Assembly: GCA_964599405.1 (NCBI GenBank)
Contig: CAZRED010000001.1
Location: 218,323 to 282,322 of the forward strand
Source of the DNA: an uncultured Candidatus Saccharibacteria bacterium
GTDB lineage: Bacteria; Patescibacteriota; UBA1384; 2-12-FULL-50-11
Length of the DNA: 64,000 nt
Reading direction: 5' to 3'
Shown in pieces: positions 1 through 63,523 of the stretch. Position numbers and translations under genes: made by a program. The notes beneath the pieces are model-generated. The model did not search any database. It was not told where the DNA came from and was given only the letters and a program-made list of their open reading frames with translations. Each line of letters starts with the position of its first letter. Within the stretch, counting starts at the first letter, position 1.

Positions 1-300
1 TAAAGTCATATACCAACGCTCATCCAAATTAAACTCATTAGCCAGGCGAACAATATCGCCCACAAATTTTTTATTGGGTGGCAAAAGACGTAGGTCGACA
101 TGGAACTTGAGTAACAATTCTGGATCATAATCAGCAGATTTGCTAAGCGACTGGTACCACTCCGCTCTTTTCTCCCAGGGTATACCTGTCTCCGGAATTC
201 TATACTTTTTCCTAAATTTTGATGTAGCACGTTGAAACCGCTTATACGCGATGAGCATTTCCCCAAAATCCTCCCAATATCTACTAGCCGTTTGATCCAT
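1..300 (-). CDS. hypothetical protein (partial, runs off window start)
   Basis: Open minus-strand frame from ATG at 298-300 (MDQTASRYWEDFGEMLIAYKRF...) with no stop before position 1. It is not in the ORF track because it lacks a stop, and is in a different frame from the listed 6..266 ORF. No recognisable domain. Confidence 0.35.
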   Translation of the reverse strand, partial: MDQTASRYWEDFGEMLIAYKRFQRATSKFRKKYRIPETGIPWEKRAEWYQSLSKSADYDPELLLKFHVDLRLLPPNKKFVGDIVRLANEFNLDERWYMTL

Positions 301-398
301 TATCTTTAATAAACCCGATCTTATAATGATTTACCACGCACCTCCAGTATTAACCTGTTATTTGATAGATTTCTCGGTATACTGCGGTTGAGTAAATA

Positions 399-2909
399 AT
401 GCCAATACAAAAGACATTTGATCGTTCAAAGAACTTTCTAGCACAGTTAATTTTTGCTCTTACATCAAAGCTCTTACTTAGGAACCGAGGGCTTTGGGGT
501 CTTGATGCAAAACGGCCCAAGCACCAAATCCTGGCCTTAAAAGTTGTTGGTCAAATATACCGCTATGGGAAGGTATCCGGGGAATACTTGAGGATTTGGT
601 TATTCACACTTCACGAAAAGGTCTCATCGAACTGGGGAATCTTTAAAGAGCTTTTATATCACTCTAGATCCTTCATCGTATTCACTTTAATAGTAGTCAC
701 CGCATCTCTTCTGCCACTGAAAGGTTGGGGATTCTTACTAACTCGTGATGTAATAATAGGCAGCTCTACCGCCTATGCGGCAGGTGCAACCGCCTTACTT
801 GGAATAGTATTTGCCCTCTATGCAGTTGGCTTTCAGGTAACTACGGCAAAGTTTTCTTCAAAAGTTACTGATTATTTAAACAGGGAGAGGGTGGGTCAAT
901 TCTTTTTCGCCCTACTAACGCTGACGGTTATTTTTTCCCTTGCCACCTTATTACTTCAGCAGGGAACGGAGGAAAAATTAGTAACAGCCTTTATTGTTAA
1001 TTCGTTTTTCATGTTTATTAGCCTAGCCGGACTCCTAATATTCAAAGATGACTACATAACTAAGCTGAAACCAAGACAGACTTTTGAACGGTTATATAAT
1101 CAAATTCTGAAGTCCATCAGGCAGGTCAATAAGTACGACTACCCTGAATTTGACTCTTTCAAAATCACCCGAGCTCAAAACGCAAAGTCTGGCCGCGTTT
1201 ACCCCTCCATTCACAGTAGTTGGTCAATTGTAACGAACCTCCAGCGTCAGGTAAGGGATCGTCTTAGTATTATCGAAGTATTTTATGATGAACTCATCAA
1301 AGATGATAAGCCCCAGGACGCAATGTATGGACTGTCGCTACTGGGACAGCTGCTCGCCGAATACACATCTGTTAAACATTTTATCGATAAGGACTTTGGT
1401 TGGTGGTTTCCCGACAAGCAAGAAATTGTCAAGGCAGACAACAGCACAACATTCGCTATAAAAGCTAATTACGAATCTAAAGGAATTGGTAGACTTGCCG
1501 TAACAAAAAAAGATTTTGATTGGGTTGAAGATACAATTATTGCATTCTTCACTCGCGTTCAAAAAAACACTGACTTTCAGAGAAATCCCGAATTAGGCCA
1601 AGCCTTAATTTTTGCGTACGAAATAGCTATCTCTGGTGACTTTTCGAAAACTAATAAGGGTCTCGAAAAGCTATTACGAGGGTGTTTTGAAAATCAATAC
1701 AACGAAATTGCTAGTAAAATATTCGCGCTTTTCGTTGATTTAGGAGAGAAGGTTTGTTCTGTAGAAGGCTGCAGGACTAATTACCTAAACGCTATGGGAA
1801 CGATAAAAACTATTATCGCAGACGGATTTTCTTTAAGAAGCTTTCCTGGCCATTTAGAGCACTGGTCAACAGACTTAGAGGCAAGAATTAAAGAGGTTAT
1901 CTCAGGCGTACCCCTAGTTTCACAGCAACGCATGATCTCTTGGAAAATGCCAAAGGAATTCTTTTCCAGCCTAACGCTACTTCGAAAAAGACTGCAAACA
2001 GAGTACGAGATCGAGGGAAGGATGGTAAGTCCTCCGGTGTGGCTAACAAAGGATGTAATGGACGAGCTCCGTCGTACAGAAAACGAGATCTCCCTAAAAC
2101 ATCAAGACGAGGTAGTTGAGGCAGTGATACGATTATCAAAATTCTGTGGCTTCTATCGTGATCACTTCGTCATGGTTATCTTAGACATGTTTAACCAACT
2201 TATTTATGCTGACAACTGGGCTGCCATTGATCGCCTGCTGACAAAGTTCGACAAGCAACTACTTACAGTTTTGCTTTCTATCCCCAAAGATCAATTTATT
2301 GAGAATGGACTTAGAGAGCAAATTGAGTTCGGAGTGTTTAATTCATTAATAGTCCGCAAAAAGGCCCCCTTCTTGTTTTACCTTAAGCTATTTTACCTAT
2401 CTCAAATTCGGCTATCAGCAGACATCACAACTCGATCACTCACCGATCAATTCAAAACGTTAAGAAGACCAATTATGCTGGGGAGCCTAGCTTATCTCGT
2501 CTCAGAGTTGGATCAAGATTTTAGCTATGTAACCTCTTTCACGGTAATGATGGAGAAGCTTTATCCCCGTGTGAGCATTGCCGATTTATATTCGCAAGTA
2601 ATCGATTATAGGAGCTTATTAGGCAGTGTGGGTATATTTGAGGTCAGCACTGAAGAGTTCGCTCGCTACAGAATTTACTATCGACAAGTAATTAACCCTA
2701 TTACGGACTTACCTCGCAGGTCTGAAACGTCTGGCTCTATACCGTACGGATTTCACACTAGCGAAATGGCTGACCACCCCAGCAGCTTTGTACGAGATAT
2801 TTCTCAACACGAATTCTCTGACATGGAAGAATGCCACGAGGGTTATGTTGGTTGGTTAAAAAAACGTGAGTTAATGAAAAAATTTATAACCCTATTAAGT
2901 AATGCCTAG
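399..2909 (+). CDS. large hypothetical membrane-anchored protein (about 4 predicted TM helices in residues 90-210, about 600-aa soluble C-terminal region)
   Basis: 836-aa ORF. Hydrophobic segments FIVFTLIVVTASLLPL, STAYAAGATALLGIVFALYAVGF, FFFALLTLTVIFSLATLLL, AFIVNSFFMFISLAGLLIF. AT-rich codon usage distinct from core genes. No family recognised by eye. Confidence 0.6.
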   Translation: MPIQKTFDRSKNFLAQLIFALTSKLLLRNRGLWGLDAKRPKHQILALKVVGQIYRYGKVSGEYLRIWLFTLHEKVSSNWGIFKELLYHSRSFIVFTLIVVTASLLPLKGWGFLLTRDVIIGSSTAYAAGATALLGIVFALYAVGFQVTTAKFSSKVTDYLNRERVGQFFFALLTLTVIFSLATLLLQQGTEEKLVTAFIVNSFFMFISLAGLLIFKDDYITKLKPRQTFERLYNQILKSIRQVNKYDYPEFDSFKITRAQNAKSGRVYPSIHSSWSIVTNLQRQVRDRLSIIEVFYDELIKDDKPQDAMYGLSLLGQLLAEYTSVKHFIDKDFGWWFPDKQEIVKADNSTTFAIKANYESKGIGRLAVTKKDFDWVEDTIIAFFTRVQKNTDFQRNPELGQALIFAYEIAISGDFSKTNKGLEKLLRGCFENQYNEIASKIFALFVDLGEKVCSVEGCRTNYLNAMGTIKTIIADGFSLRSFPGHLEHWSTDLEARIKEVISGVPLVSQQRMISWKMPKEFFSSLTLLRKRLQTEYEIEGRMVSPPVWLTKDVMDELRRTENEISLKHQDEVVEAVIRLSKFCGFYRDHFVMVILDMFNQLIYADNWAAIDRLLTKFDKQLLTVLLSIPKDQFIENGLREQIEFGVFNSLIVRKKAPFLFYLKLFYLSQIRLSADITTRSLTDQFKTLRRPIMLGSLAYLVSELDQDFSYVTSFTVMMEKLYPRVSIADLYSQVIDYRSLLGSVGIFEVSTEEFARYRIYYRQVINPITDLPRRSETSGSIPYGFHTSEMADHPSSFVRDISQHEFSDMEECHEGYVGWLKKRELMKKFITLLSNA

Positions 2910-3990
2910 AAATAGCGAACAATTCCATGGCACGCATTTTAGCGACCCCTTTAAAGAACTGCTAAACGGACACGCCCAGCGAGTATCTACTACGAAAGAT
3001 GCTATGCAGCTATTTCATGAGGTGCATAATTATCGTCAAAACTTATTTCCTCCACGCTCCGTCCCTGTTTCAGGGAGGCCGGGAAGTTCTACCCTAGACA
3101 GCAACTTTTTTAGAGTTTCAGTAGCTGGAAGCCCCGCCTTAAGTAGGGATCTGAACGGTCATTTTACTGACACTAGAGGGTACCCAGCACATGGGGTGTC
3201 ATATGATGGAGCTCACGACCTATCTGAGTTTTTTGAAAACTCTTTATACCACCTATTAATCGACGGCATTGCTACCTATGTGATCGACTGGGAGCGAATA
3301 AAAGTCGCTAATCGTTATTATACGATTCCCGTGGGCCTTCGCTATATAAATCCCTCAACCATAACTATCCCGAAAAACGGAGTTGTTAAACAAAAGTTCA
3401 GCTGGATTGCCAAAGAGGTAAATAACCATTTTGAGTATCAAGATTCTCGCTTCTCCATAAAAGATTTAGTTATTTTCAAGCACCCTATTTATCCATTTTC
3501 TCCAGTAGGAAGGTCTCTTCGCTTATTAAAACAACTCAACCAGTGGAGTATTTTTTCGTTGCAGCAAGGGCAGGCAAATGTTGAGCCCGAGAATCATTCT
3601 ATCGAGCTAGAAAGAACTCGCTACAAACTAGCCGAACCTTATCGCAATAGGGAAGCAATAGCTCGCGCTAAAGTACGAAGGATCTTCAATCAAATAATAA
3701 GCGATACGGGGGTTGAGGCAACCCCTTATTACGAAGTGCTTGCATTCGCTCAATACAAAATGCGATTAAACGAATTCCGAGACTATTTTATGAAACAATT
3801 TTCCGAACAAATACTCAAACAGATTCAAGAAAGGAACGGGTTAAAGAATCCCCCGCAGATTGAGTACCGAGGGTTTGCAAAGAATGACGACATACTTTCT
3901 TCTCTTAAGGAATTTGAGGAAAGAAAAGTTAACGTTGAGGAGTTTCTGAAGAAAGTTAAGGATGATTTCGACCGAGATCTTTACCAATAG
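2902..3990 (+). CDS. hypothetical protein, translationally coupled to upstream gene
   Basis: 362-aa ORF whose start ATGCCTAG overlaps the upstream stop by 8 nt. No TM segments and no recognisable motif. Confidence 0.55.
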   Translation: MPRNSEQFHGTHFSDPFKELLNGHAQRVSTTKDAMQLFHEVHNYRQNLFPPRSVPVSGRPGSSTLDSNFFRVSVAGSPALSRDLNGHFTDTRGYPAHGVSYDGAHDLSEFFENSLYHLLIDGIATYVIDWERIKVANRYYTIPVGLRYINPSTITIPKNGVVKQKFSWIAKEVNNHFEYQDSRFSIKDLVIFKHPIYPFSPVGRSLRLLKQLNQWSIFSLQQGQANVEPENHSIELERTRYKLAEPYRNREAIARAKVRRIFNQIISDTGVEATPYYEVLAFAQYKMRLNEFRDYFMKQFSEQILKQIQERNGLKNPPQIEYRGFAKNDDILSSLKEFEERKVNVEEFLKKVKDDFDRDLYQ

Positions 3991-4005
3991 AAAGGACTTC
4001 AGTAA

Positions 4006-5172
4006 GTGAGACACCGAAAAGATCGTGAGTACTACGAGAATTTCTACGACAAGCTAACCGTTCATTTTGCTCGGAACGATATGGATTCCTTTTTCAGGCT
4101 CCGCGACGAGCTGAAAAAGAAGCTGCCGAAAAAAGAGTTTGAAGCACAAAGCACGCTGTTCTGGCTCGATAAGCTTTGCGACATGCTGGTTATGTGGCCA
4201 TGTGGTGAGCGCTGGGAAAAACGGGGCAGAGAGATCGACAGCATGATGCTAGCCGACGGAAATAAAGACCGCCAACTGGAAAACGCCCGGCTTCGACAGG
4301 AACCTGTTTGCAAACACTGCGGCAAGATTGGTTTACGTATCACCAGTAAGTATTTGATGCATCGAAACGGCTACTCACAAGACGTGCCAGAAGAAGTTTT
4401 GTTCATGCTCGACTGCCCAGCTTGCGAAAAACGAAGCAGTTACTGGGAAAGCGGCGAGTCATTTGAGAGACAGTCGACCCTCTGTCCAAAATGCCAAAGC
4501 GAGATGAAAGAACGCGACAGTCGCAAAGGCAAGATAATCACTACAACCTACACCTGCTCCAAATGCAAACATTCGTATAAAACGGCGCTCGATCTTCGTT
4601 CAAAGCCAGAAGAACCGGATCCGGATTTCGAGAAGCATAAAGCGATTTTCTGTTTTGATAATAAAACCGGTTTGGAGTATTTGCAGCGGCGCAACAACTG
4701 GAAAGCGTTTCAAGAGATGATGGATAGGGAAAAAGAGAAGGAGCAAAACGAGGCGCTGTACGGCTTAGTCGCGAAGATCAAGCGATTAAAAATTGCCGAA
4801 CTGATTGAGCTAATGGAAAAAGAGCTCAAGAAAGTCGAGTTTATTGAGGTTCGCTTTGAGAAGCCGGAGATTGGCAAAGACGTCATCGTTTCGTTTAGCT
4901 GCTTAGACGGAGATTCCAAACGCAGCGCTTATGACAGCGAAAAAATCCTAAAACGAACCGTTAAGAAAACATTACACCCAACCAACTGGCGACTGATGAC
5001 CGAAGGTGTCAGTTACCGTCTTGGCTACTTAACCGGCCGAGTCCGAGCCTACGAAAACGAAGAAGATTTGGTAAGGCTGATCGAAAAAGATCAGCCAGAG
5101 CTCAAGCGGGAGAAAACGGCGAATGATCCTGATCAACTTTTAGACAAAGACGGAAACATTATTACTTTGTAA
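4006..5172 (+). CDS. hypothetical zinc-ribbon protein (four CxxC pairs)
   Basis: 388-aa ORF with CKHCGK...CPACEK and CPKCQS...CSKCKH, i.e. two predicted zinc ribbons, and a charged coiled-coil-like C-terminal half. Its 3' end overlaps the convergent DGR RT gene by 11 nt. Confidence 0.6.
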   Translation: MRHRKDREYYENFYDKLTVHFARNDMDSFFRLRDELKKKLPKKEFEAQSTLFWLDKLCDMLVMWPCGERWEKRGREIDSMMLADGNKDRQLENARLRQEPVCKHCGKIGLRITSKYLMHRNGYSQDVPEEVLFMLDCPACEKRSSYWESGESFERQSTLCPKCQSEMKERDSRKGKIITTTYTCSKCKHSYKTALDLRSKPEEPDPDFEKHKAIFCFDNKTGLEYLQRRNNWKAFQEMMDREKEKEQNEALYGLVAKIKRLKIAELIELMEKELKKVEFIEVRFEKPEIGKDVIVSFSCLDGDSKRSAYDSEKILKRTVKKTLHPTNWRLMTEGVSYRLGYLTGRVRAYENEEDLVRLIEKDQPELKREKTANDPDQLLDKDGNIITL

Positions 5173-6184
5173 GCGAGGCGGTGATCCGAGACTGAATTTT
5201 CTTTTTGAGCTTGTGGGTATCGGCGTGCTGTAAGACGCCGTGATACGACGCCAGCGACTGGCTAAGGTCGTATGTGGTGATCGACTTATCTTTGTATTCA
5301 CTTAGCCGCTGGTCAATCTTCTTGATGACTCGTTGTTTCGTTTTAGTTCGCAACTGCTTGCGGTACGGCAAGATAACGTAGCCTAAAAAGTCAGCGCCCT
5401 GCCGATATTTTCTGATCGATACTTTGTTTGGGTGTAACTCGAGCGATAGCTCCTTGGTTAAAAATGCCCTAACCGGCTCCAAGAGATTTATTAAATAGTC
5501 TTCACTCTCGGCGATAACGACAAAGTCGTCGGTGTAGCGAGCGTAATATTTTACGCCCAAAGTTTGTTTCACAAATTGATCAAACTCGTTCATGTATATG
5601 TTAGCAAAGAGCTGGCTGGTTAAGTTACCGATCGGCATACCGTCCGGAAAACTCCCGATGATTCGCTCCAGAAGCCAGAGGGCGTCCTCGTCTTTAATCC
5701 GTTTAGCGAAAGTTCGAATGATTAGCTCGTGGTCAACACTTCGAAAGAACTTTTTGATGTCACATTTGAGAACAAAACAGGGTCTGGTGTAATTATGACT
5801 AACCTGTCGGATCATTTTATCGACCGCCAAAACTCCTCGGTGAGTACCTTTGCCGACTCGGCAGGAGAATGACGTTGAAATAAACCCGGATTCGAAAATT
5901 GGATTGAGGATATTAAATAGGGCTTGGTGGACGACTCGATCACGCACCTCGGCCTTACTGATAAGCCGCTGTTTCGGGTCTTGGATGTAAAAGGTGTGAT
6001 ATTTGCCGTGCTTATACCGACGGCTTTTTAAGTCTCGGTGAAGCTGAAAAAGGTTTGGTTCGAGCAACCACTCAAACTTCTGAACATCTTTACGGCTCCG
6101 CTTACCTTTACGGAATTTTTCCCACGCCAAAAAGAGGTTTTCGACCGAAATGATTGCTTCGAACAGATTTTCGTATATTTTCAT
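5162..6184 (-). CDS. diversity-generating retroelement (DGR) reverse transcriptase
   Basis: 340 aa. N-terminus MKIYENLFEAIISVENLFLAWEKFRKGKR is typical of DGR RTs. Motif IGNLTSQ (the DGR-specific I/LGxxxSQ replacing group-II QG). Catalytic YTDD box (ARYTDDFVV). RDRVVHQAL motif. Confidence 0.9.
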   Translation of the reverse strand: MKIYENLFEAIISVENLFLAWEKFRKGKRSRKDVQKFEWLLEPNLFQLHRDLKSRRYKHGKYHTFYIQDPKQRLISKAEVRDRVVHQALFNILNPIFESGFISTSFSCRVGKGTHRGVLAVDKMIRQVSHNYTRPCFVLKCDIKKFFRSVDHELIIRTFAKRIKDEDALWLLERIIGSFPDGMPIGNLTSQLFANIYMNEFDQFVKQTLGVKYYARYTDDFVVIAESEDYLINLLEPVRAFLTKELSLELHPNKVSIRKYRQGADFLGYVILPYRKQLRTKTKQRVIKKIDQRLSEYKDKSITTYDLSQSLASYHGVLQHADTHKLKKKIQSRITASLTK

Positions 6185-6658
6185 ATGATGGAGACACTTG
6201 GTTTACCGATCTTTCAAAAGTCGTACGATCTTTATAAATCCTTCTACGGCTGTCGTGACCACGTCGCCAAACAAGACCGGCATACCGTTTGGCAGCGCTG
6301 CGAAAACCTAGTTCTCGATCTACTCCAGTCGATTATTCAGGCTAGCCAGCAAGATAAGGCGGATAAGCTGATAACACTCGAGAAAGCGAGCGTCCAGCTC
6401 AACATGCTTCGCATTTTATTACGGCTCACTAAAGACCTGAAAGTCATCGATCCCAAGAAATACCTAATGCTCGAGGAGCAAATCGACGAGGTTGGTCGAA
6501 TGTTGGGCGGTTGGCTCAGATCGACTAAGATCCCCCCCCCCCCGACTATTTGGGTTCGGACGCGCGTTAGTATGCTGTCTAAACTAAGATTGAGAGATAG
6601 TGCCGAGAGGCCGACAACCCCAAGTTGGAGTTGCGGTTACCATCCGAGTTCCTGTTGA
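6185..6658 (+). CDS. avd: DGR accessory variability determinant (Avd); true C-terminus probably near 6531-6590, the ORF reads through a C12 tract into the TR
   Basis: MMETLGLP... The C-terminal helix ...LEEQIDEVGRMLGGWLRS closely mirrors the Bordetella phage BPP-1 bAvd ...IAEVGRILGSWIAR, with four-helix-bundle family spacing. The start ATG at 6185 abuts the RT start codon (complement of 6182-6184). The part of the listed ORF before 6185 lies inside the RT gene and is discounted. Confidence 0.75.
   Translation: MMETLGLPIFQKSYDLYKSFYGCRDHVAKQDRHTVWQRCENLVLDLLQSIIQASQQDKADKLITLEKASVQLNMLRILLRLTKDLKVIDPKKYLMLEEQIDEVGRMLGGWLRSTKIPPPPTIWVRTRVSMLSKLRLRDSAERPTTPSWSCGYHPSSC
6532..6543. repeat. C12 homopolymer (G12 on the minus strand) at the avd 3' end, 59 bp from the TR
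   Basis: Twelve consecutive C read directly from the sequence. A tract of plus or minus 1 would end the Avd frame at about 6571 or 6590 instead of 6658. Confidence 0.9.
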
Positions 6659-6716
6659 CGTTGAACCCATTGGCATTGAAGTTGCCAACGTTGACGCGGT
6701 TGCCATTCGAATCGAT
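6603..6716 (-). repeat. DGR template repeat (TR), sense on the minus strand
   Basis: 114-bp near-identical copy of 7154..7267. All 17 mismatches are T in this copy on the plus strand (A on the minus strand) versus A/C/G in the other copy. It is AAC-codon rich on the minus strand and has a GC-rich 3' end (GGGGTTGTCGGCCTCTCGG, IMH-like). Confidence 0.9.
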
Positions 6717-6994
6717 ATTTGCCCATTTTCTTCTGGTTTCACCGAAAGTTGAGCCTTACCGTCGGATTCTATCTTGAACCCTGCGGCTAAAGAATTATCG
6801 AATCGACCTATTTACTCTTCTTTCTGAATTTTATTTGGGAGCAGCGTAGAAGCATCTCCACCAAAAATGAGCAAGAACTTTCTCTCAAATCTTTCTCGCA
6901 CGCTGCCGCAACCGGTGGCTGCTGACATTCTGGCGAACTGAAGAATGAGTGCCCCGCGAGACCCAACCATGGCCGGATCTACACTAGCAAGACG

Positions 6995-7010
6995 CCTGCA
7001 TTATACCTGT
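6995..7010 (-). promoter_or_regulatory. candidate promoter -10 (CAGGTATAAT on the minus strand) positioned to drive a TR-containing transcript
   Basis: The minus strand reads CCTAACAGGTATAATGC. It shares CAGGTATAAT with the target-gene promoter element at 8110-8119. The -35 is weak. Confidence 0.3.
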
Positions 7011-7074
7011 TAGGATGTCAGCCGTACAGGGTTAAACAACGAAAAATGTGGCGAGCGCTTCGCGCTCTTAGTAT

Positions 7075-7102
7075 AAAAAAGCCCCGGCGGAAAACCGCCG
7101 GG
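7075..7102 (-). terminator. rho-independent terminator downstream of the DGR target gene
   Basis: Stem CCCGGCGG / loop AAAA / CCGCCGGG, followed on the minus strand by a T6 tract. Confidence 0.7.
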
Positions 7103-7144
7103 AGTTCAAGGGGGACAAAAGGCTCAAGAGCCAATGTCCAAAGT

Positions 7145-8002
7145 TCAGAAGTTCCGAGAGGCCGACAACCCCAAGTAGGAGTAGCGGAAACCATCCGAGT
7201 ACCCGCGGACGCCGAACCCATAGGCATCGAAGCAGCCAACGTAGACGCGGTTGCCATCCGAAACGATGTCGGAGCAGCGAACGTAGACGTTCTCGAACAG
7301 GCGCTCTCCCGTATTCAGGAAGTGTCCCATGACCGTGTACGTCATAACGCAAGCTGTCGGAGTCGTCTCGTCCTTCAGGAGGGCTTGCTGCTCGTCCCAA
7401 GACTTGCTGGTCGAGTTATCGACCGGCTGCTTGCGGATGAGGTACCAGCGGACTTCGACTTTGGTCTTCTTGGCGAAGGCTTGAGTCTCATACCACCCGC
7501 CGGTCGGCGTGTAGAAGAGCTTGCCCTTCTTGGCTCGGCCAGCCTTGGTCCGAACTTGCAGGAGCGTCATCGGATAGCCGGCAACGAGCACGTGTGTGTC
7601 TTTGCAAGCTTCGAGAACTTCCTTAGTGAACGGAACCGTAGCGAGAGCGTCGAGCTGATCCTGGGTCCACTTAGCACCGAGGTGCTTCGCGGCTTCTTCG
7701 AGACCGAAGAAGTTCGTTCCCATGATCGTCTTGGCTTCGTTCTGGCTGTCGGTCAGCTCGATGGCGGCAACAGGCGGAGCCTGCTGGCCGGCCTTCTTCA
7801 AGGCCTTACGAGCAATCCGATCCATCTCGTTAGCGAGCTGGTCATAGCCCAGAAAGGCTTGAAAGCCCGGGCCGTCCAAACCGTTACGGTGGACAAAATC
7901 GCGCATGACCTGGTCGCACTTGTGAAACTGGTCGTCAGTGACTGGAGTAGATGGAGGGGTCTGTGTTTGTGGCATCAGGCGTCTCCTCGTGTTTATGCCC
8001 AC
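7145..8002 (-). CDS. DGR target protein with C-terminal CLec/FGE-like variable region; no signal peptide evident
   Basis: 285-aa ORF containing the VR. The C-terminal GFRYSY/ VRGYSDG pattern resembles C-type-lectin-fold DGR targets. The opposite-strand 354-aa ORF (7046..8110) is R/L/A/G-rich antisense. Confidence 0.8.
   Translation of the reverse strand: MGINTRRRLMPQTQTPPSTPVTDDQFHKCDQVMRDFVHRNGLDGPGFQAFLGYDQLANEMDRIARKALKKAGQQAPPVAAIELTDSQNEAKTIMGTNFFGLEEAAKHLGAKWTQDQLDALATVPFTKEVLEACKDTHVLVAGYPMTLLQVRTKAGRAKKGKLFYTPTGGWYETQAFAKKTKVEVRWYLIRKQPVDNSTSKSWDEQQALLKDETTPTACVMTYTVMGHFLNTGERLFENVYVRCSDIVSDGNRVYVGCFDAYGFGVRGYSDGFRYSYLGLSASRNF
7154..7267 (-). repeat. DGR variable repeat (VR) in the 3' end of the target gene
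   Basis: Counterpart of the TR. It encodes the last ~40 aa of the target protein (...VYVRCSDIVSDGNRVYVGCFDAYGFGVRGYSDGFRYSYLGLSASR). Differences from the TR occur exclusively at TR adenines. Confidence 0.9.
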
Positions 8003-8094
8003 GGGGCAGATTGTCTCCTCTCGGTTGAGATGAGCTGCTCAGAAACTGCTTATTTCCAAGAAGCTCATCTCAAACTTCTTACTGTTAATGTTCG

Positions 8095-8130
8095 TCGGAA
8101 GTATACCTGATTATACCTGAAAAGTCAAGG
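8095..8130 (-). promoter_or_regulatory. sigma70-like promoter of the DGR target gene (-35 TTGACT, 17-bp spacer, -10 TATACT) carrying the shared CCCTTGACTTTTCAGGT motif
   Basis: The minus strand reads CCCTTGACTTTTCAGGTATAATCAGGTATACT. The same extended motif occurs at 35675-35712 and 36293-36330. Confidence 0.55.
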
Positions 8131-8189
8131 GATTAGAGGACGATTTCGGCTATAAAAGTGTGAAGTGTTACGTGACACCTTACGGTTTC

Positions 8190-8317
8190 GTATCGTAACT
8201 TTTTAGCTGCTCGATTTCTTCTTTGGTTTTGGCTTCGTAGCTACATTGGGAGCAACGGTAAAAGTCATCGATTTTAATCATTGACCCCTTACACCGAGGG
8301 CATTTTTTGTAATGCAT
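8190..8317 (-). CDS. small zinc-ribbon protein (42 aa, CPRC...CSQC), candidate
   Basis: Translated by eye: MHYKKCPRCKGSMIKIDDFYRCSQCSYEAKTKEEIEQLKSYDTKP. It is below the ORF-track size cutoff. Confidence 0.3.
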
Positions 8318-8373
8318 GATTTCTGATTATCTCGGGAACAGGTACAAAGTCAATTATAGTTATCTACTAACTG

Positions 8374-8946
8374 ATGAGTTATGATCACCTCATGAAAAGC
8401 GAGCTACTAATCTTGGCTGAATTTCCCGAGGAAATTTGTTGGCTCGGTAATGAAATACTCCGCCAAAAAGCAGAGTCCCTCACTCAGAATGAAATAAAAG
8501 AGGGGAAAGCTGCAGAAATTACCAAAAGGCTAGAGATAACCCTTAAAAAGATTCAAAAACTTGGCAAGGGTGTTGCCATCGCTGCACCACAAATAGGAAT
8601 CTCTAAAGCAATAATCATTATTTACCTAGAAGATCGGTATATTCCTTTTATAAATCCTGTGATTACCACTGCTTCAGAAAACAAGAACTCTTTTCCCGAA
8701 GGCTGTTTGAGTAGTTTACCGTTAGTGGCTGAAACCATCCGACCGGCAGAAATTGACGTGAAATATTTAGACGCTGAAGGAAAAGAACATTTGGAACATT
8801 TTGATGGCAAGATGGCACGAATGCTCCAACACGAGGTTGATCATCTCAACGGCATTCTGTTTATTGACCGAGCGAACTTAAAGACAGGCCGTTTCATAGC
8901 CGACTGGGATGAGTACAAAGAAACAGCTCAGCTAACTGAAATATAA
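8374..8946 (+). CDS. def: peptide deformylase
   Basis: Motifs GVAIAAPQIG, EGCLS and HEVDHLNG (HExxH). Confidence 0.85.
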   Translation: MSYDHLMKSELLILAEFPEEICWLGNEILRQKAESLTQNEIKEGKAAEITKRLEITLKKIQKLGKGVAIAAPQIGISKAIIIIYLEDRYIPFINPVITTASENKNSFPEGCLSSLPLVAETIRPAEIDVKYLDAEGKEHLEHFDGKMARMLQHEVDHLNGILFIDRANLKTGRFIADWDEYKETAQLTEI

Positions 8947-8996
8947 ACCCCAATGGCTAATTCGACAATTCCAGGTTCGAAAGTACAATTCAAGAA

Positions 8997-9530
8997 ATGA
9001 AGACTCTGCCACGCGAAGAAGCCTCAATGCTTTTTGACGAGTGGTGGAATGATTTTGATAAAGAGTGGTTTAAAATCGAGGTTTTGCAAGACTACTCGGG
9101 TGAAGATAACGGACCTTCACTACAAGCTTGGTTAGAAGGCAAAAAGCAAAAAAGCATTGAGCTAATGAAAGCTACTATGAATATGGAATGGATTGAGAGT
9201 TGCCAAGCCAAAGTTGGACAAGGAGCGAAACTACTTCGTATCCGCCTCATAGGAAATCCTCTCACTCCGTACTCAGAGTGGGAAATGGAACACTATAAAC
9301 ACGTTAATATTCCTCTTTGTGGCGAGGAGGTTTTGCTGATTAATAAAACCGACGCCAATGACCTCTCCCTACCCACTGGAGATGTAATGATTTTTGATGG
9401 GAAGAGGGTTATTAAAAATACTTATACGCCAAATGGCTATATGACAGAGCAAACATTCTATGAGGATGAGGACGTTTCGACCTTTTTAAACCTGAGGGGC
9501 GAGCTACTTAAACGAGCAGTCCCGATCTAA
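8997..9530 (+). CDS. hypothetical protein
   Basis: 177-aa ORF with no recognised motif. Confidence 0.45.
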   Translation: MKTLPREEASMLFDEWWNDFDKEWFKIEVLQDYSGEDNGPSLQAWLEGKKQKSIELMKATMNMEWIESCQAKVGQGAKLLRIRLIGNPLTPYSEWEMEHYKHVNIPLCGEEVLLINKTDANDLSLPTGDVMIFDGKRVIKNTYTPNGYMTEQTFYEDEDVSTFLNLRGELLKRAVPI

Positions 9531-9535
9531 TAGCC

Positions 9536-10138
9536 TTACGTCTTTATCAGTGTGAAAGCGGAAACCAAGAAAAGGATCCCTATAATTATCCTGGCCAAGG
9601 GTTGGGCTAAGACTTTCTCTATTATCATTACTTTTTGGGATGCTTGGGCGATAAAAATAAACCAAAGAGCTGTGAACAGTCCCATCTCTAACGCAACGGC
9701 GAGCTGGAATGATAGATCTACGCCGTTGCTTCCCAGCTGACTAATGACCGCGATATAGAAGAAGACCATTTCAATATTTACAGTGTGGTTGATAAATCCG
9801 GCCAGCAAAGGGCTTATTGTCTGCGTTTTATTCCCGCCTGATTTTGCTACGTGAGGAAAGAAGCAAATAACCGCTTGCCAGATGAGCCAAGCTGCACCGA
9901 GGTACCGAATGACTTTTGCGGCGGAAGGAAAGTAGTCAAAAAAGACGCTTAGCCCAAAGATAGCAAGAATAACGACCAACAAACTTCCCAAGCCAAGGCC
10001 AATAGCAACTAGGCTGCCGTTACGAGAGCCTTCCTGAGACGAGTGCCTCAGAACCAGAAACCAGTCAGATCCCGGAAAGACAATCATCCCTGCCTGGAGC
10101 AGAACAACCGCAATTATTTGTTGCAGTGAATTTTCCAT
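9536..10138 (-). CDS. LysE/RhtB-family amino-acid exporter
   Basis: About 6 TM segments in 200 aa. N-terminal VFPGSDWFLVL resembles the LysE-type translocator PGP motif. Confidence 0.7.
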   Translation of the reverse strand: MENSLQQIIAVVLLQAGMIVFPGSDWFLVLRHSSQEGSRNGSLVAIGLGLGSLLVVILAIFGLSVFFDYFPSAAKVIRYLGAAWLIWQAVICFFPHVAKSGGNKTQTISPLLAGFINHTVNIEMVFFYIAVISQLGSNGVDLSFQLAVALEMGLFTALWFIFIAQASQKVMIIEKVLAQPLARIIIGILFLVSAFTLIKT

Positions 10139-10248
10139 ACTTACTCCATATCGTACTCGTTATTTGATATCGGAGTAGGCCGGAAAACGAGACAAAATGC
10201 AACTTCTTTTTTATAGTGTCTCAAATGTCTCATTTACCCTGATGGGAA

Positions 10249-10270
10249 GTTCTAGACCGGAATGTCCCGC
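10249..10270 (+). repeat. 22-bp direct repeat, copy 1 (GTTCTAGACCGGAATGTCCCGC)
   Basis: Perfect identity with 10719..10740. Lies 43 bp upstream of the peptidase gene start. Confidence 0.9.
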
Positions 10271-10313
10271 CAGTCTTGATAATAAAAATATAAATTCTAC
10301 AATTCGGGGATCC

Positions 10314-10718
10314 ATGGAAAGTGTCACTCAACAAGATAATTATGGTTGTGGGGTAGCTTGTGTCGCCTATATTAGTAAAAGGACTTATCGAGCAACGTTA
10401 AAAACATTAGACGCTAAAGCGGCTAAGACTCGGGGGTTTGCTTGCAAGGATTTGGTTATCGGCTTAAATACCATAGGCCATTCTTATACTTATAGTTACC
10501 TCCCAGGAAAGTTAAAACGAAAAATTTATGCTGATGGTGTTATCGTGTTTATTAAAAGGTCTGAACATTACCCGGCCGGACATTACTTAGTTCGAAGCCA
10601 AAATAAGTGGATGGACCCTTGGCTTAATTTTAAGAAGGATCGAAATATTAAAAAAGCTGAGTCTGGCTATCGAGCTAGGTTACCCGGCAAACCAGTTTAT
10701 GCCTTATTCCCAAATTAG
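10314..10718 (+). CDS. papain-like cysteine peptidase, C39-like domain protein
   Basis: QQDNYGCGVACVAYI matches the C39-family Q...CG(V/P)AC catalytic-Cys motif. The start is taken at the internal ATG with a GGGGA RBS. The track ORF from 10197 would include repeat copy 1. Confidence 0.5.
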   Translation: MESVTQQDNYGCGVACVAYISKRTYRATLKTLDAKAAKTRGFACKDLVIGLNTIGHSYTYSYLPGKLKRKIYADGVIVFIKRSEHYPAGHYLVRSQNKWMDPWLNFKKDRNIKKAESGYRARLPGKPVYALFPN

Positions 10719-10740
10719 GTTCTAGACCGGAATGTCCCGC
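10719..10740 (+). repeat. 22-bp direct repeat, copy 2
   Basis: Begins immediately after the TAG stop of the peptidase gene. Confidence 0.9.
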
Positions 10741-10803
10741 ATTGTTTGCTTCTAATAAATTCTCTATGTATATTCCGGTGAGACACACAGGAGGAATTCG
10801 TCT

Positions 10804-11136
10804 ATGAACCTTATATTTCGAATCAACACTACTGCCGATGACGCGGGTGAAATGCTTGGGTTGGTCAATAAGCTCGAATGGAGGTTAGAAGTCCTCAATC
10901 TTGGAGTGACCATCAAAAAGACCATGGTTTCGTCTCGGAAGAAACGTAACGAACCGCACACTCTAACAGTTGGCGAAAGGGCCGTTCGGGGTGTTGAGCA
11001 AATTGAGGCACTTCTTAGTGATATGCGCCTTAATCCTTACTGGCTTACCGCTGAACAGGCTTCTGTAGAAGTGCGTAAATGGCCGACATGGAAACGTGGT
11101 GACTACTCACATCTCAAGCTTCCCGAAGCAACATAG
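10804..11136 (+). CDS. hypothetical protein
   Basis: 110-aa ORF with an AGGAGG RBS 7 nt upstream. Confidence 0.45.
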   Translation: MNLIFRINTTADDAGEMLGLVNKLEWRLEVLNLGVTIKKTMVSSRKKRNEPHTLTVGERAVRGVEQIEALLSDMRLNPYWLTAEQASVEVRKWPTWKRGDYSHLKLPEAT

Positions 11137-63341: not shown

Positions 63342-63423
63342 GGAGGGTTGGCAGAATGGTAATGCACTAGTCTTGAAAACTAGCGGGCGCAAGCCCTTGT
63401 AGGTTCGAGCCCTACACCCTCCG
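63342..63423 (+). tRNA. tRNA-Ser (anticodon UGA), class II with long variable arm
   Basis: Manual fold: acceptor GGAGGGT/ACCCTCC, anticodon stem CTAGT/ACTAG, loop CTTGAAA, variable arm CGGGCGCAAGCCC, T-arm GTAGG-TTCGAGC-CCTAC. Confidence 0.8.
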
Positions 63424-63450
63424 CAAGAGCGCAAGCTCTTAAAACTAATT

Positions 63451-63523
63451 GCGCTCGTAGCTCAGCGGATAGAGCGTTCGGTTGCGGTCCGAAAGGTCAC
63501 AGGTTCGATTCCTGTCGAGCGCG
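63451..63523 (+). tRNA. tRNA-Arg (anticodon reads GCG)
   Basis: Manual fold: acceptor GCGCTCG/CGAGCGC, D-stem GCTC/GAGC, anticodon stem TTCGG/CCGAA, loop TTGCGGT, T-arm ACAGG-TTCGATT-CCTGT. Confidence 0.7.

Follow-up and report, generated by a model that had tools for sequence, protein, structure and literature searches.

The stretch of DNA considered here, a window of 64,000 nucleotides from contig CAZRED010000001.1 of an uncultured Candidatus Saccharibacteria bacterium (assembly GCA_964599405.1), carries a diversity-generating retroelement (DGR) whose features are collected in Table 1. At the sequence level, the locus combines a reverse transcriptase (RT) of the DGR lineage, a template repeat (TR) and a variable repeat (VR) that differ in an adenine-specific manner, a VR placed at the 3′ end of a target gene, a GC-rich IMH sequence and an avd (accessory variability determinant) gene. 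The avd gene lies between TR and RT on the strand opposite to both. As discussed below, this layout is the published norm for DGRs of candidate-phyla-radiation (CPR) bacteria, and comparison with relatives indicates that the template is embedded in a structured RNA driven by its own promoter, the conserved part of which lies upstream of the template.

Table 1. Features of the DGR locus, with positions counted from the first letter of the window; a minus sign marks the strand shared by TR, target and RT
Feature	Position	Strand	Basis or remark
DGR reverse transcriptase gene, 340 aa	5162..6184	-	RVT_1, 4e-23
Head-to-head RT/avd junction	6181..6190		Sequence read directly
avd (accessory variability determinant)	6185..6535, open reading frame on to 6658	+	PF22296, NF033474
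C12 on the plus strand (G12 on the TR/RT strand)	6532..6543		Relatives show a hairpin and the avd stop codon at this place
X′, TCTCTCAA, adjoining TR on its 3′ side	6590..6597	-	Complementary to leader segment X
Template repeat (TR), 118 nt, 29 adenines	6599..6716	-	Repeat pair and adenine pattern
Conserved structured leader RNA, directly 5′ of TR, 275 nt	6718..6992	-	Alignment A1, nhmmer
Conserved -10 box TATAAT for the leader-TR RNA	7000..7005	-	Box T and A at least 90% conserved in A1 (41 loci)
Intrinsic-terminator-like hairpin and T-run after the target gene	7072..7103	-	9 pairs, 8 of them GC; CTTTTTTATA
DGR target gene, 276 aa from the ATG at 7975	7145..7975	-	VR (7150-7267) at its 3′ end
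Variable repeat (VR)	7150..7267	-	3′ end of target open reading frame 7975..7145
Promoter-like site TTGACT-17-TATACT upstream of the target gene	8100..8128	-	10 of 12 consensus positions; consensus match only

The closest solved relative of the RT is 8ub7_A (2.8e-52, aligned over residues 3-327), which we take to be the Bordetella phage bRT, the source table calling it just "Reverse transcriptase". IGNLTSQ and YTDD motifs are both present in the translation; a motif of the form [I/L]GxxxSQ is typical of DGR RTs. The N terminus, MKIYENLFEAIISVENL, aligns from residue 1 with 80+80 relatives, and the 3′ end of the gene overlaps a convergent open reading frame (ORF; 4006-5172) by 11 nt. The assignment of avd, which the original prediction would have abandoned had profile searches failed to recover it, is secure: the ORF scores 74.8 bits against PF22296 bAvd (9.4e-21, cut-off 40) and 88 bits against NF033474 DivGenRetAVD (4.3e-25, cut-off 80), the latter over the entire profile (1-104/104). 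The Avd domain spans about 117 aa, and the Avd proteins of relatives are 115-116 aa long. The target protein matches no family in Pfam, NCBIfam or the PDB sequences; its gene has a Shine-Dalgarno (SD) sequence, GAGGAG, at 7988-7983, 7 nt before the ATG.

The Logan project's independent assembly of run SRR6868922 contains a contig that matches the window at 7023/7023 nt, RT/avd junction and C12 run included; this contig possibly derives from the window's own sample and thus checks the assembler without being a second sample. The exact RT protein is also encoded on this contig. Its gene calls (L161 2040-3001, equivalent to window 6185-7145) include the target, likewise at 276 aa, the RT and the neighbors, with no call for avd. 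At this locus, automated annotation would accordingly overlook the very gene on which the finding turns.

TR and VR are 85% identical over 118 nt, and 17 of their 18 differences fall at TR adenines, so that 17 of 29 adenines differ between the two copies while 88 of 89 non-adenine positions are the same. The remaining difference, a C/A at 6602/7153 (GGGGTTGTCGGCCTCTCGG(A/C)ACT), lies in the GC-rich 3′ end (IMH/IMH*), and adenine substitutions are absent 3′ of 6626. All 29 TR adenines occupy codon position 1 or 2 of the target frame, with 9 AAC and 3 AAT codons, and 3 nt lie between the VR end and the stop codon of the target ORF. We found no further VR in the 64-kb window. The lack of any non-adenine difference outside the IMH lends indirect support to the idea that the element may still be active.

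Read in the sense of the RT, the order at the locus is target and VR, about 430 nt of non-coding DNA, TR, a further 55 nt or so, the oppositely oriented avd and, back to back with it, RT. The junction reads tcatATGATG, in which the complement of 6182-6184 is the RT start codon and the adjoining ATG at 6185 is that of avd. A second in-frame ATG follows at 6188, and homologues align from this second methionine, so the true avd start may be 6188, giving a gap of 3 nt rather than 0 nt. In either case, the original prediction was right that the two start codons face each other at a distance of 0-3 nt, and the ORFs together with the adenine pattern of the repeats bear out its assignment of TR, RT and target to the minus strand. 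Its reasoning from this geometry is also sound: with so short a gap, the promoter of either gene has to overlap the coding sequence of the other, and a transcript running from TR into RT would be antisense to avd.

The description of the layout as unusual, however, did not survive comparison. We collected relatives with the RT as query, scanning JGI metagenomes as well as genomes at one per species, which yielded 160 loci with 47-82% identity. Most of the 80 relatives from genomes are labeled as metagenome-assembled genomes (MAGs) of CPR/Patescibacteria, the nearest being a Berkelbacteria MAG with 82% RT identity; some are labeled only "bacterium" and, oddly, a few Gammaproteobacteria. An avd could be detected in 149 related loci, and in all of them it is divergent from RT and directly upstream of it; the opposite orientation, for which the original prediction had proposed searching orthologous loci, was found in 0 of 149. 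Among the 107 loci with confidently placed starts, the gap between the start codons is -2 to +14 nt in 94%, exactly 0 in 20, and in 11 the two genes share two bases (CATG). The other spacings are near-constant as well in the approximately 40 relatives examined in detail, with 348-455 nt from the VR end to the TR start and mostly 36-59 nt (range 10-70) from the TR end to the avd stop.

The same arrangement has been described as architecture B3, TR-(avd)-RT, in which avd is reversed between TR and RT and which accounts for 90% of a CPR DGR set (Wu et al. 2018, PMC5758913); in Roux et al. 2021 (PMC8144416), its counterpart is DGR clade 2 (Patescibacteria). The window agrees with B3 in how TR (6716..6599, minus), avd (6185-6535, plus) and RT (6184..5162, minus) are ordered and oriented, and in having its target and VR upstream on the RT strand; most of its relatives from genomes carry CPR labels. 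Even the lack of a recognizable domain in the target protein is as reported for CPR targets, and the architecture is no different. Because avd is inverted in all 149 relatives as well as in the published B3 class, the label "unusual" is wrong.

Two relatives depart from the common pattern in detail. In the nearest one (L001; 1981-2078), 96 nt separate the avd and RT starts and hold a remnant copy of the RT 5′ end (ATGAAAATATACAAAAAT), which now opens a short dead-end ORF; the junction there has thus been rearranged by partial duplication. In another (L060; 3282-3394), a TR-like repeat with adenine-specific differences lies on the strand opposite to RT, in the same direction as avd, with the VR downstream of RT; this is a different arrangement inside the same RT clade. 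Co-transcription of TR and RT is consequently not obligatory in the clade.

What the relatives reveal beyond this layout is the nature of the DNA between VR and TR. The 275 nt directly 5′ of TR form a conserved, structured leader. A leader profile matches the window at 9.6e-46 (nhmmer, 6992..6718) and is found in 97 of the 126 loci with enough upstream DNA, in each case on the RT strand and with TR directly after it; the loci without a match are mostly those with the most distant RTs. The structure was evaluated on an ordinary MAFFT alignment (A1), not one fitted to a structure. RNAalifold on A1 gives 46 pairs, 39 of them with compensatory double changes, in helices at columns 166-201, 255-320, 360-370 with 556-566, 374-419 and 433-528. 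Standard pairs fill 96.7% of the cells; sliding the 3′ partners by 1-3 columns lowers this to 37-50%. The covariation measure is 0.751 versus 0.28 in shuffled and 0.10-0.17 in slid controls, and none of 500 shuffles reaches any observed measure. A search of 5000-8300 against Rfam 15 (E up to 1) returned no match to the leader, the only hit being a sub-threshold, suhB-like match on the terminator downstream of the target gene.

Two segments of this leader connect it to the ends of TR. Segment Y (6873-6863) forms an 11-bp helix with Y′ (6730-6720), which directly precedes TR. Segment X (6888-6881, TTGAGAGA), which adjoins Y on its 5′ side, is complementary over 8 bp to X′, and this pair was also recovered blind in an inverted-repeat search (I15). 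In many loci, the best match of the leader to the post-TR tail clusters in the X columns, with differing sequences. The complementarity is specific to each locus: across the 41 loci, with tails unaligned, it averages 7.32 within a locus and 5.83 across loci, the observed mean being reached in 0 of 20000 permutations, and four control segments of the leader show no difference between own and other tails. Together, X:X′ and Y:Y′ would hold both TR ends at one junction through two adjacent leader strands.

The leader also appears to have a promoter of its own. Hexamers resembling a -10 box peak 7 nt before the conserved leader start: 35 of 88 loci have one at that position, which is flanked by shoulders, compared with 1-3 at each position elsewhere. 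The corresponding box in the window predicts a transcription start near 6993, at the beginning of the conserved block; we found no good -35 for this promoter. Upstream of it, the terminator-like stem after the target gene (7103-7082) is followed by a T-run and by a second small hairpin at 7053-7067, and relatives carry equivalent hairpins upstream of their -10 boxes. A separate promoter for the TR RNA, one of the options that the original prediction had listed, thus draws support from the target terminator, the conserved -10 box and the conserved structured leader. In the DGR literature that we covered, with Paul et al. 2017 outside its scope, we found no description of an upstream RNA element in CPR DGRs, that is, of a structured VR-TR spacer, nor of the abutting starts and near-constant spacings in accounts of B3.

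On the other side of TR, about 35 of 41 relatives have a hairpin of 9-17 bp between TR and the avd stop, often with an A-run ahead of the stem and a T-run behind it; z-scores are -2.4 to -5.1 in the five relatives that were folded. Two readings of this element can be entertained. First, it could be a bidirectional terminator common to the TR RNA and the convergent avd mRNA. Second, it may be the Avd-binding stem-loop of Handa et al., who place such an element "just downstream of TR" in 207 out of 278 DGRs that contain Avd, CPR members among them (preprint, 10.1101/2023.10.23.563531). That study analyzed 40 nt upstream and 100 nt downstream of TR (10.1101/2023.10.23.563531), so the leader described here falls outside its region. 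The window differs from these relatives in that its own post-TR interval contains no hairpin of at least 6 bp (z +1.1).

Less can be said about how avd and RT are expressed. SD-like motifs at -18 to -4 occur before RT in 0 of 113 loci and before avd in 3 of 113. A scan of 5000-8300 for the sigma-70 consensus recovered the target promoter and terminator and nothing for RT or avd; the same scan misses the TR promoter for want of a -35. A positional search in 108 loci likewise gave no peak of -10-like hexamers upstream of the RT and avd starts. Upstream of RT there is a conserved TTGAAAATTGGTATATC, which reads antisense to the conserved N terminus of Avd (DIPIFKK) and cannot be separated from coding constraint. 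In the window, TATATT lies at 6174-6179, 5-8 nt before the avd ATGs; relatives have no consistent equivalent. Since the start codons are 0-14 nt apart, the avd and RT mRNAs would have to be leaderless or to overlap in antisense at their 5′ ends.

The element is quite probably an ordinary CPR-type DGR of architecture B3 that works as four transcription units, in keeping with the published argument that cassettes with components on different strands need at least two such units (Wu et al. 2018, PMC5758913). The first would be the target gene, with its own promoter, SD and terminator. The second would be a non-coding DGR RNA that begins approximately 7 nt after TATAAT (7005-7000) and consists of the 275-nt leader, the 118-nt TR and a short tail, in which the Y:Y′ and X:X′ pairings would bring the two TR ends to one junction. 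The third and fourth, avd and RT, would be expressed divergently, their start region lying within one another's first codons, as SD-less mRNAs with no leader or a very short one. The conserved RNA around TR lies upstream of TR, so TR need not be co-transcribed with RT; this independence would in turn explain how an inverted avd can sit between them. The positions of the transcript ends, the leaderless expression of avd and RT and a role of the leader as RT-Avd scaffold are what we infer. Three points weigh against the four-unit reading. At the window locus, where the post-TR hairpin is lacking, there is nothing recognizable to halt the TR RNA before avd and RT. In several relatives, the T-tract of the hairpin is weak, and the hairpin may serve to bind Avd rather than to terminate. 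Finally, neither RT nor avd has a canonical -10/-35, and their promoters are assumed.

The alternative that best survives these data is that transcription continues beyond TR, crosses the whole of avd in antisense and provides the RT mRNA, in which case convergent transcription or RNA pairing would couple avd and RT expression inversely. Such a co-transcript would fit with TR and RT lying on the same strand in all but one of the informative relatives, with the failure to find a separate RT promoter, with the hairpin-free interval between TR and avd in the window and with the poor T-tract of the hairpin in several relatives, where the element could be a protein-binding stem-loop. Yet a strong hairpin stands exactly between TR and the avd stop in most relatives, many with both the A-run and the T-run; TR is on the strand opposite to RT in L060, and the occupation of different strands by TR and RT has also been reported elsewhere (Wu et al. 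2018, PMC5758913). Moreover, RT would lie about 410 nt into such a transcript without an SD. On balance we regard the co-transcript as unlikely; antisense regulation by read-through is somewhat more plausible at the window locus, which lacks the post-TR hairpin.

This missing hairpin raises a different question, namely whether the element is in decay. Where relatives have the hairpin and the avd stop, the window has C12, the sole G/C run of at least 9 in the 64 kb, which begins one codon past the point where the Avd of relatives is two residues from its stop. The usual stop at about codon 116 is missing, and the ORF continues to 6658, into TR, for 157 aa. Its length varies with the run, from 127 to 157 aa for C10-C14, all run lengths other than C12 giving 127-134 aa. 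The run is real and recurrent. Runs in the same slot occur as G8 in L001, with homologous flanks, as G10 in L030 and as G9 in L109, so that the G-run variant is present in 4 of 139 loci, always with G on the TR strand, against a background of 34 G/C runs of at least 8 in 977 kb. A sequencing artifact was accordingly considered and rejected, given the homologous flanks around G8 in L001 and the recurrence of the run in L030 and L109. A metagenome scan for near-identical loci in which the run length might vary gave none above 59% identity, which leaves the Logan contig as the sole identical copy.

It could be argued from the lost stop, the dependence of ORF length on the C-run and the absence of the stem-loop that avd has been damaged by the homopolymer and that the DGR is a non-functional relic. 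We consider this very improbable. The Avd domain is intact over its full profile and above the curated cut-off, the RT is full length, the same G-run variant is found in four loci, and the TR/VR pair, with 17 of 29 adenines changed and all but one of the other positions retained, argues for recent activity. An element with an intact Avd domain and no non-adenine TR/VR differences outside the IMH does not look dead.

The remaining proposal, that avd was flipped in this genome, be it by recent inversion, through an invertible switch or in a mis-oriented assembly join, has nothing in its favor beyond the contrast with the Bordetella phage layout and a negligible chance of being correct, as the orientation is the same in 149 of 149 relatives from many assemblies, the contig of the second assembler is identical, and the coding sequences run uninterrupted into the junction. 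The search for inverted repeats flanking avd, which the original prediction had suggested, found only pairs at chance level (the best being 13 nt at 85% and 24 nt at 71%). An invertible DNA switch is ruled out by the lack of convincing flanking repeats and by the single orientation in all 149 loci. Of the inversion that had been offered as an explanation, what can stand is an ancient event that became fixed throughout the clade.

To return to the four-unit reading, comparison with the DGR of Bordetella phage BPP-1 suggests what the leader may do. That element has the order mtd-avd-TR-brt, and its core RNA is made up of a 20-nt piece of avd, a TR of 134 nt and a spacer (Sp) of 140 nt (Handa et al. 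2018, PMC6182149); this RNA is primed in cis, from Sp A56 (Handa et al. 2018, PMC6182149; Handa et al. 2024, 10.1101/2023.10.23.563531). The two systems share homologous RT and Avd proteins, an adenine-specific pattern of mutagenesis and an IMH-like, GC-rich 3′ end of TR and VR. They differ in that avd in the window is on the other strand and downstream of TR, and in that the window has no counterpart to the non-coding spacer of approximately 140 nt that, in BPP-1, separates TR from RT, contains the priming site and wraps the RT. Instead, TR is followed after about 55 nt by the C/G run and the 3′ end of avd, and RT begins 414 nt after TR with antisense avd between them. The stem-loop, proposed to bind Avd, that directly follows TR in the Bordetella-type RNA is absent from the window. 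Conversely, the conserved structured RNA of the window lies 5′ of TR rather than 3′, a permuted connectivity. The TR flanks are paired in both, through the 8-bp X:X′ in the window, although the upstream partner here is about 165 nt before TR and not within 40 nt.

We therefore offer as a hypothesis, by analogy, that the leader is a permuted equivalent of the BPP-1 spacer. With the odds in our judgment against it, CPR-type DGRs in general might use a permuted RNA in which a 5′ leader of about 275 nt holds the template for RT-Avd, with two of its strands clamping the TR flanks. In such an RNA, the strand paired to the 3′ flank of TR would have the geometry of a primer strand, and the tail after TR would be short.

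Several other features of the locus and its surroundings can be mentioned. In relatives, several CTTGA(A/G) repeats, a small hairpin and then the terminator follow just past the VR and stop codon, as judged by eye. The counterpart region in the window (7105-7149, minus strand) contains, again by eye, GGACA...TGTCC around GGCTCTTGAGCC, and may correspond to the inverted repeat that the Bordetella element has downstream of its IMH. At the other end of the target gene, the putative 5′ untranslated region (8025-8073, minus strand) contains a 21-nt inverted repeat, 86% complementary, with a 7-nt loop. The G+C content is 0.40-0.47 over window positions 1-11000 and 0.50-0.56 in most of the rest (15000-64000), and the kilobase of the target gene (7001-8000) is the maximum of the window, at 0.567. 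Two adjacent tRNA genes at 63342-63523 (plus strand) are the sole matches in the window at Rfam gathering scores.

In general, the divergent avd/RT layout matters little by itself, as it is the published norm for CPR bacteria, which according to the DGR literature hold a large share of known DGRs. What the comparison adds is how tightly this layout is fixed, with abutting start codons and near-constant spacings, and that the template appears to be part of its own promoter-driven RNA. The window locus carries, in addition to the features of B3, a G/C homopolymer in place of the post-TR hairpin, and this recurrent run and the structured leader with its two TR clamps are of more interest than the layout. 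For reconstitution of a CPR DGR, the predicted RNA suggests construct boundaries of about 6993 to 6530 on the minus strand. If the permuted RNA exists as proposed, it would explain both the move of avd, in inverted orientation, to a place between TR and RT and the start region that the two genes have in common. And if the leader does act as the scaffold for RT and Avd, the RNA requirements established in the Bordetella phage would not transfer directly to the lineage that is richest in DGRs.

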